Origin: Escherichia phage vB_EcoP_06
Strand: one strand, 5' to 3'
DNA: 51,775 nt
Sequence record: PP532814.1
Part shown: piece after piece, positions 38,995-39,200 of the stretch
Position numbering within the stretch: position 1 is the first letter of the stretch
How the letters are laid out: every line of letters begins with the position of its first letter
Translations under genes and position numbers: made by a program
The notes under the pieces: generated by a model
Seen by the model: only the letters and a program-made list of their open reading frames with translations
Database searches by the model: none
What the model was told of the DNA's origin: nothing

Positions 38995-39200
38995 ACACAC
39001 ATAGACGGGCGGCAAGGATTGCTGCGGGAGAGGAGAAACGCAGGGGCTTGATCGAAGTGTCAGGATTCCCAACCGTGAGGCCAGAACTATCACACTCGCC
39101 ACCAGGCAGAACGCTAGATAGGTCACTGAACTGAGTCTACCGACGAAGTGAAGCCCGTCACTCAAGATTAACAGGTTATCAAGGCGAAAGGGGTGTAAAG

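Follow-up and report, generated by a model that had tools for sequence, protein, structure and literature searches.

A folded RNA domain predicted to head a transcript of Escherichia phage vB_EcoP_06 and conserved across unrelated siphophages

In the genome of Escherichia phage vB_EcoP_06 (sequence record PP532814.1; 51,775 nucleotides (nt), the whole stretch being called the window), comparative sequence analysis indicates that positions 38999-39161 of the plus strand encode a folded non-coding RNA domain of ~160 nt, which is predicted to head the transcript of the promoter at 38950-38994. That this element belongs to a real family of structured RNAs is, in our judgment, close to certain. The ~51.8-kb window looks like the complete genome of a T1-like phage (Drexlerviridae, Tempevirinae). 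An earlier note, made from this DNA alone, had proposed a structured untranslated leader here, with a role as a small RNA of the phage or as a regulatory element in cis; this proposal is supported, as the element is conserved across unrelated genera and shows strong covariation. As a kind of feature, structured promoter-proximal leader RNAs are already known from phages; this family is absent from Rfam 15.

The promoter carries a sequence box that recurs in the window, and the gap behind it is long. The next open reading frame (ORF) supported by a ribosome-binding site is a gene of 59 amino acids (aa), and its start codon lies 206 nt from the −10 box. At 16 other box promoters this distance is 28-41 nt, and at the box site 26219 it is 34 nt from the −10 hexamer to the ORF at 26297 (hand count). 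The short leaders noted earlier were thus found again, with two exceptions on the minus strand, 4835 (67 nt) and 1075 (no ORF found). The terminal complement GACGGGC/GCCCGTC is likewise present, with seven perfect base pairs (bp) and a span of 156 nt. By our estimate, one perfect 7-bp complement is roughly at chance level in 200 nt, and folding of the single sequence is no better than that of shuffled sequences (minimum free energy of −49.5 kcal/mol vs. −54.3 ± 4.0 kcal/mol, z = +1.21). Hence, it is the comparison with relatives, in which this stem (P1) takes at least seven different pairing sequences, and not the single sequence, that makes the GACGGGC/GCCCGUC stem real.

RNAalifold was run on 11 representatives from homologous phage regions and predicted 33 pairs, 12 of which carry compensatory changes. 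For the covariation test, 28 distinct sequences were aligned to a covariance model (R1), and the 3′ partners were slid by 1-3 columns as a control. Paired cells amounted to 95.7%, compared with 30-47% for slid partners. Changes on both sides were seen in 12 pairs vs. 1-3, and the covariation score was 0.288 vs. at most 0.061. None of 500 shuffles reached the observed values. The outcomes which the earlier note had named as speaking against its proposal both failed to appear: conservation and covariation were found, and no ORF is conserved in any frame.

The fold consists of seven helices, P1-P6 plus P6a (Table 1). P1 encloses the P2 hairpin and P3, and P3 encloses a three-way junction with P4/P5 and P6/P6a. 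Checked sequence by sequence, all P1 variants of the different lineages pair; examples are GACGGGC/GCCCGUC, GACGGGUG/CACCUGUC, GGGCGGCG/CGCCGCCC, GAGGCG/CGCCUU, GUCGAC/GUCGAC, AGGCAG/CUGCCU, and AGACGG/CCGUCU. MAFFT failed to hold P1 in one register, and the support for P1 therefore rests on this per-sequence check. In the variant L165, the whole P2 stem is replaced (AGCUAUA-AGGA-UAUAGCU) and the loop is kept, and changes in P1 and P5 are also fully compensated. P3 is 100% paired, with A-U changed to G-C in 13 sequences and a second, independent covariation from C-G to A-U in the window and to U-G in phage tunus. P5 is 96% paired and has compensatory changes in KMI8, Lumpael, and L165. All four counted pairs of P6 and three pairs of P6a show compensatory changes, and these helices are 100% paired. 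The internal pair CUGCG/CGCAG, which the earlier note had given as an example, did not hold up: relatives have CAGCC for CUGCG with CGCAG unchanged, and the bases belong to P2 and P4. An all-against-all analysis of alignment columns for extra helices or pseudoknots yielded no more than invariant candidates and signals that relatedness confounds. An alternative pairing of UUCCC with the Shine-Dalgarno sequence is weak and possible; it is invariant and hence without covariation information.

In 16 representatives, 68 of the 156 positions (44%) are invariant, and most of them lie in junctions. The invariant blocks include GGAGAGG, ACGC-GGGG, AUUCC-AACCGUGA, CACU, AGAACGC, and CGACGAAG. Invariant junction strands are GGAGA, CCAACCGUGA, and AGAACGC, and CGACGAAG is invariant in all sequences of the 28-sequence alignment but one, a Dhillonvirus contig (L025) with CGACGAGG in its place. 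P6a is flanked by the invariant CACU and AGAACGC, and its loop is ACCA in the window and GNRA in most relatives. As the stems have turned over and the junctions are unchanged, selection likely acts on sequence-specific surfaces, which argues against a mere recent spread. Several G-U pairs are invariant as well; they fit the plus strand alone, which is hence the folded one.

With the lineages anchored on the invariant GGAGAGG, neither strand has a frame that stays open across the element in all of them. The window has a 64-aa ORF on the minus strand and a 28-aa ORF on the plus strand over the element. The frame of the former holds for only 25 aa from a start codon in Dhillonvirus, and the latter is reduced to 9 aa. 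No PHROG family matches either of them. Phage Motto has stops in all six frames over the element, and the insertions and deletions between lineages are 1-2 nt long, not multiples of three. Since no frame is conserved, the coding sequences (CDSs) annotated over the element in WaterSpirit (CDS0073) and HeidiAbel_Bas97 (Bas97_0052) are spurious. The 3′ end of QDH94280 in PHB17 also runs over the element, likewise without support from a conserved frame; the RefSeq copy labels the feature at the match as DNA methyltransferase.

With a 216-nt query, sensitive blastn against 50,697 phage records found the element in 171 of them at 80-94% identity, with one copy per genome. The whole leader is present in 20 Tempevirinae records at 93-94% identity. 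Phages with no other similarity to this one carry the core (38998-39148) at 80-83% identity. These are Serratia phage MQ-4; Klebsiella phages KMI8, KA2-1, and IME279 (Sortsnevirus); Enterobacter phage Arya (Jilinvirus); Escherichia phages BUCT618, HeidiAbel_Bas97, Alux-21, and sortkaff; and Salmonella phages PT1 and Lumpael (Murrayvirus). A variant is found in ~134 Dhillonvirus-type records, including HK578, EP23, SO-1, JL1, and SECphi18. In the blastn matches, the similarity ends at the element borders. The carriers are virulent siphophages of Enterobacteriaceae and belong to at least six unrelated lineages.

Pattern scans together with model R1 gave 22 contigs from IMG/VR and 15 from metagenomes, as well as one new variant (L165). 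In three further pattern scans of viral contigs, L165 was the sole new member and the other new loci were chance hits; the 15 true members from the metagenome scan fall into already known subfamilies. The 13 soil-metagenome hits that were inspected had matched the three-block DNA pattern with a fixed span of 100 nt; they lie in a gene for a conserved protein of soil bacteria (...MKLVGEGTFNREDRKAAMKFAFKNAGVD...) unrelated to the RNA. A poorly specified 16-mer pattern scan of genome contigs returned chance hits, and model R1 rejects all 80 loci. No homologue was found in the chromosomes of 5,426 E. coli genomes, prophages included, or in 72,556 plasmids.

The Rfam search proposed in the earlier note gave no family for the element at gathering or permissive thresholds. 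In Rfam 15, nothing in the whole window matches at the gathering score, and at expectation values (E) up to 10, the region 38800-39450 has two chance-level hits, both off the element. At E up to 5, no hit falls on the element in the Arya, HK578, Motto, and BUCT618 loci. ARAGORN predicts no tRNA or tmRNA gene in the window. No paper containing the conserved sequence blocks was found in the literature, and topical searches (Drexlerviridae, Dhillonvirus, SECphi18, phage RNA motifs) returned nothing on the element. A covariation screen of IMG/VR intergenic regions has reported candidate cis-regulatory RNAs located ahead of genes (Fremin, Bhatt and Kyrpides 2023, PMC10690425). The element-bearing IMG/VR contigs (L014-L038) come from the same type of resource, and the element may be among the 10,006 unnamed candidates of that screen; in outline, the text of that paper describes no such motif for Dhillonvirus or Drexlerviridae.

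Some records deserve comment. Campylobacter phage A144 (MG065648.1), Pseudomonas phage Motto (ON843697.1), and one Acinetobacter phage record carry copies of the coliphage type. Among the matches to this coliphage region, 17 records list Campylobacter jejuni as host, and the host labels look doubtful. Escherichia phage P-GXEC-L2P5 (PQ843332.1, 88,607 bp) has three Dhillonvirus-type copies in a record of twice the usual genome length, which probably reflects a concatemeric assembly and not a multi-copy genome.

In every lineage aligned, a −10-like hexamer lies ~9-12 nt (hand count) ahead of the element, before the conserved ACAUAG-P1 start. In the window, P1 begins 9 nt past the −10 hexamer, and the spacing predicts a transcription start at ~39000-39002, which would place the start of P1 at ~+3 to +5. 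The promoters differ in type: they are of the box type in Drexlerviridae and Lumpael and of the TTGACA type with 16-17-nt spacers in BUCT618, HK578, and IME279. The HK578 record annotates a promoter at the position upstream of the element. As a promoter stands directly ahead in every lineage, the element would form the 5′ end of the primary transcript. It is always co-oriented with the downstream ORFs, and in the ten annotated lineages with a clear first gene, the start codon follows 26-51 nt past the model match. Most lineages have a C/A-rich linker with a UUAAC-like motif (AUUAAC, CUUAAC, UUUAAC), then a Shine-Dalgarno sequence and the start codon. In the lineages compared, the stretch from P1 to the first ORF showed no terminator, taken as a stem with a T-run next to it.

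The genes behind the element differ. Among the first and second downstream proteins of 11 lineages, a homologue is common only to Lumpael and IME279. No neighbor protein is common to all lineages, three lineages per protein being the maximum, and clusters that reach most or all lineages consist solely of the spurious ORFs over the element itself. The neighbor proteins are of unknown function. In HK578, the element heads a 19-gene operon of ~12 kb, in which a terminator with seven GC pairs follows right after the first gene (gene 44).

The regions flanking the element in the window are 97% identical to Hanrivervirus Henu8, and the element itself is 94% identical to Warwickvirus-type phages (tunus, WaterSpirit, swan01). 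Henu8 has the identical promoter with a short leader that leads straight into the gene for a 295-aa protein, and it lacks the element; only ACAUAG and a hairpin of the GGGCG/CGCCC type are retained. Because Henu8 has the same promoter without the element, the latter is best seen as an accessory, portable module, which in the window includes the 59-aa gene. This gene accompanies the element in Warwickvirus-type phages only.

Two short leaders resemble parts of the element. That of the box promoter 38414 (38452-38500) and that of Henu8 (L002, ~1400-1450) share their first 12 nt with Arya-type elements (ACAUAGGGCGGC) and have only a GC-rich 5′ hairpin; the Henu8 leader ends like the 3′ side of the element (CGUCGCCCACAA). 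Both have the appearance of minimal forms of the element or of what an internal deletion left behind.

Table 1 Features of the element, its surroundings, and related annotations. Positions refer to the window unless a locus (L) is named
Feature	Position	Strand	Remarks
Box promoter	38950-38994	+	box ATAGCACTTTTTGTTAAA 38951-38968; −10 hexamer CATAAT 38989-38994
Structured RNA element	38999-39161	+	covariance model R1, 158.8 bits, E = 3.7e-35; sole match in window
P1 5′ strand GACGGGC	39004-39010	+	pairs with 39153-39159
P2 hairpin GGCAA-GGA-UUGCU	39011-39025	+	extendable to G39009-C39025; invariant A-GGA loop
J2/3 junction strand	39026-39031	+	GGAGA (39027-39031) invariant in 16 representatives
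P3 5′ strand GGAGA	39032-39036	+	long-range partner 39136-39141
P4 (ACG/CGU) around P5 hairpin (GGGGCUUGAU / GUCAGG-AU-UCCC)	39038-39076	+	loop CGAAGU; P4 invariant
P6 (CUAUC/GAUAG) and inner P6a (CU-GCC / GGC-AG)	39087-39121	+	P6 = 39087-39091 with 39117-39121
P3 3′ strand UCU-A-CC	39136-39141	+	
J3/1 junction strand	39142-39152	+	GACGAAG (39142-39148) belongs to the CGACGAAG block
P1 3′ strand GCCCGUC	39153-39159	+	
C/A-rich unstructured linker with AUUAAC, then Shine-Dalgarno GGGGUG	39160-39200	+	Shine-Dalgarno 39190-39195
First gene, 59 aa, phrog_8121, function unknown	39201-39380	+	E = 1.9e-33
Box sites, examples	26219, 27260, 37951, 38414, 38951, 40336, 42856, 44199	+	
Box sites, examples	4835, 15446, 30975, 33819, 35220, 35717, 36855	−	
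WaterSpirit CDS0073	L001 1024-1266	−	CDS annotated over the element
Bas97_0052	L007 1549-1668	+	CDS annotated over the element
PHB17 QDH94280	L012 840-1598	+	CDS annotated over the element (3′ end)
13 soil contigs (L171, L172, L177, L180-L182, L192, L193, L201, L204, L211, L227, L232)			matched the three-block DNA pattern; rejected

The box ATAGCACTTTTTGTTAAA occurs in 21 copies in the window (at most two mismatches) vs. 0.33 expected by chance, and it may represent a phage-specific promoter class or the site of a regulator. When all copies are aligned, a −10-like hexamer is found ~22 nt after each box; counted from TTGTTA, this spacing exceeds the optimum for sigma-70. Many of the short box-promoter leaders start like CAUCGAAACGA and continue with a Shine-Dalgarno sequence of the GAGGA type. 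The same type of box is also present in Lumpael, Motto, and KMI8. The palindrome which the earlier note had seen ahead of the promoter is there (AAGTGCTAAATAGCACTT, 38942-38959) and overlaps the box. Its significance was not upheld, as it is peculiar to this phage, the place being taken by AAATTCTAAATAGCAC in tunus and by AAATTCTGAATAGCAT in Henu8. With a 7-bp hairpin and a T-run, the palindrome is terminator-like for the upstream gene. That gene (70 aa, 38681-38893) is followed just past its stop by a hairpin, CCCCAC-UUCAC-GUGGGG (38904-38920), which has no T-run and is also present in Henu8 with one change.

On the downstream side, a hairpin (GGCCGGA-UAA-UCCGGCC, 39389-39405) lies 3′ of the 59-aa gene. 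A run of six T begins 14 nt past its stem, a distance that sets it apart from a canonical intrinsic terminator. WaterSpirit has this hairpin, and tunus does not. Promoter, element, 59-aa gene, and this hairpin together form a moron-like unit, which is followed by the 295-aa gene and then by the next box promoter at 40336.

A leader that acts in cis is favored by three observations: the element always stands directly behind a promoter, is constantly fused to mRNA, and does not depend on which gene follows. The element may be a portable leader module that would be active as RNA on its own transcript. It would fold while emerging from the host RNA polymerase, and its invariant junction surface would dock on a conserved host component, since unchanged junctions suggest binding to something conserved in the host. 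Our first choice for this component is the transcribing RNA polymerase itself. Similar to the put RNAs of phage HK022, the docked element could suppress pausing or termination and so allow read-through of hairpins such as 39389-39405 or the first-gene terminator of HK578. In addition, the near-terminal P1 helix may shield the 5′ end from 5′-end-dependent decay. We rank a constitutive cis-acting leader of any kind first, as quite conceivable, if short of probable, and consider its specific direction at RNA polymerase to be fairly unlikely.

Several points weigh against this cis-acting, polymerase-directed leader. The 5′ end, the 3′ end, and any activity of the element are what we infer from sequence. 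With 160 nt and a three-way junction, it is unlike put RNA with its ~70 nt and two stems. A terminator after the first gene is present in HK578, is non-canonical in the window, and was not seen in most other lineages; in tunus, there is no hairpin after the first gene. Moreover, the next box promoter is only 1.3 kb downstream, so that long-range antitermination is not obviously needed. The closing P1, the invariant junction core, and the variable stems capped by GNRA loops have the classic look of a riboswitch or ribozyme, and the conserved unpaired nucleotides would fit a trans-acting protein decoy equally well.

Such a decoy would be a stable RNA cut from the 5′ untranslated region (UTR), e.g., by RNase E in the A/U- and C/A-rich linker, that titrates or inhibits a conserved host or defense protein. 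As it is transcribed first and needs no translation, it would be made within seconds of infection. Its accessory nature and horizontal mobility among unrelated phages that share hosts would suit this role, as would its place in clusters of small early genes of unknown function. Invariant unpaired nucleotides in combination with turned-over stems suggest sequence-specific recognition, P1 closes a discrete domain, and most lineages have 3′ of P1 the UUAAC-like motif, which resembles the cleavage preference of RNase E. No adjacent phage protein is common to all lineages as a partner, and the element is absent from E. coli chromosomes, prophages, and plasmids. On the other hand, in no lineage does the element stand alone with its own terminator; it is always fused to mRNA directly behind a promoter. 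The search of E. coli genomes revealed no similar host RNA as a model for mimicry, and we cannot name a target. We therefore rate a trans-acting RNA as somewhat unlikely. A riboswitch, i.e., an aptamer for a small molecule which reports the host state or immune signaling and gates the downstream genes, is less likely still. The architecture of the element would suit an aptamer: P1 closes the domain, the junction of several helices holds invariant nucleotides, the peripheral stems covary, P6a is mostly capped by a GNRA loop, and the size is ~155 nt. The location in the 5′ UTR, usually 25-40 nt ahead of the start codon, would fit as well. However, the downstream genes are almost all unrelated between lineages, which argues against a common pathway. 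Neither a terminator nor a conserved helix sequestering the Shine-Dalgarno sequence was found after P1, and none of the Rfam aptamer classes gives a match, even with E values of up to 10 allowed.

As a new type of self-cleaving ribozyme, the element could process the 5′ end of the operon transcript and leave, for example, a 5′-OH. The invariant core with variable stems, the occurrence in phages, and the lack of a gene association would agree with this; for twister, hatchet, and pistol ribozymes, occurrence in phages without gene association is usual. The element, however, is larger than most small self-cleavers and matches no Rfam ribozyme family, and strict promoter adjacency is unexpected for a processing ribozyme, which makes this reading very unlikely. 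Acting as DNA, the element might be a transcription-primed origin (of the RNA II or R-loop type) or a single-strand initiation signal with DNA hairpins. In several lineages it adjoins replication genes: in Arya and HeidiAbel it follows the primase, in MQ-4 it follows the helicase, and in HK578 it heads an operon that we take to be the replication operon. Its 5′ half is G-rich, and in Dhillonvirus it lies in a divergent promoter region. Against an essential origin stands Henu8, the closest relative, which does without the element. The element is also common to unrelated genera whose replication genes we assume to differ, and co-orientation with transcription, promoter adjacency, and invariant G-U pairs are features of a folded transcript. 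A role at the DNA level is thus highly improbable. Least of all do we credit that the element has no dedicated function and is a missed or mis-called protein gene or a neutral spacer recently spread by recombination. The GenBank CDSs in WaterSpirit (minus strand) and HeidiAbel_Bas97, the two short ORFs in the window, and the unexceptional single-sequence fold could be taken in its favor. Yet there is no conserved frame, Motto has its stops in all six frames, PHROG gives no hit, and 12 compensatory pairs with invariant junctions in spite of stem turnover are the opposite of neutral decay.

Some resemblances were considered by eye and dropped, as they are not conserved across lineages: an RfaH ops site (GGCGGCAG vs. 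GGCGGTAG), a type I-F CRISPR repeat hairpin (P6a), segments of 5S rRNA, 4.5S RNA, and M1 RNA, a hammerhead core, a K-turn at P3, and a tRNA-like N-CCA after P1. The last is found right after the P1 3′ strand in about half of the lineages (ACCA in WaterSpirit and PHB17, GCCA in HeidiAbel). The window has ACUC there (39160-39175: ACUCAAGAUUAACAGG), and given the C/A-rich linker, the tRNA-like end may be due to chance.

Some 70 invariant nucleotides, kept despite movement between unrelated lineages, suggest that the RNA recognizes something conserved in Enterobacteriaceae. It is a possibility, which we hold only tentatively, that the element represents a new functional class of phage RNA without an Rfam relative that acts on a conserved host machine or signal. 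This could be a second form of RNA-only processive antitermination, unrelated in structure to the known one and used by virulent phages, or an aptamer or decoy that within seconds of infection senses or neutralizes a component of host defense and gates accessory early genes. Laboratory model phages, namely the BASEL Dhillonvirus isolates, SECphi18, and HK578, carry the element unannotated at the head of an operon. For annotators, the family provides a target for covariance models and allows the removal of false ORFs. For experimenters, it is a compact object of ~160 nt for studies of RNA-only control of transcription, of decoys for host or defense proteins, or of a new aptamer or ribozyme. As it already sits before unrelated genes, the element may also be useful as a portable 5′ UTR part for E. 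coli.

Among known systems, riboswitch aptamers such as those for lysine and cobalamin share with the element the location in the 5′ UTR, a closing P1, an invariant junction core, peripheral stems that covary, a GNRA loop, and a similar size. The element differs in that it matches no Rfam class, has no common downstream function, and has no identified expression platform. In contrast to sponges of the CsrB/RsmZ type with many repeated hairpins, it has one GGA loop (P2), and its four GGA in 156 nt compare with ~3.5 expected from composition. mRNA stabilizers of the ompA 5′ UTR type have a helix a few nucleotides from the 5′ end, as is predicted for the element; like it, they are transferable to different coding regions and continue with a single-stranded segment and a Shine-Dalgarno sequence, and a bare 5′ hairpin is found at the same place in Henu8 and in the leader of promoter 38414. 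For these stabilizers, however, a terminal hairpin suffices, which leaves the ~70 invariant junction and loop nucleotides and the three-way junction unexplained.

The put RNAs are ~70 nt long and form two stem-loops; putL acts in cis, begins at +3 of the PL transcript, and binds the zinc-binding domain of the RNA polymerase β′ subunit (PMC9378689). They occur in temperate lambdoid phages, whereas the element is found in virulent siphophages and has ~160 nt, a closing helix, seven helices, and a three-way junction. Model R1 scored at most 4.9 bits on the HK022 segment 24000-34000, which was taken to hold the early region. The analogy would thus be positional and functional only: both RNAs are phage-encoded, have no protein partner encoded beside them, and would be transcribed by the sigma-70 RNA polymerase of the host. 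Like putL, the element is predicted to lie near the 5′ end of its transcript, and as put RNAs head multi-gene operons that contain terminators, so does the element in HK578.

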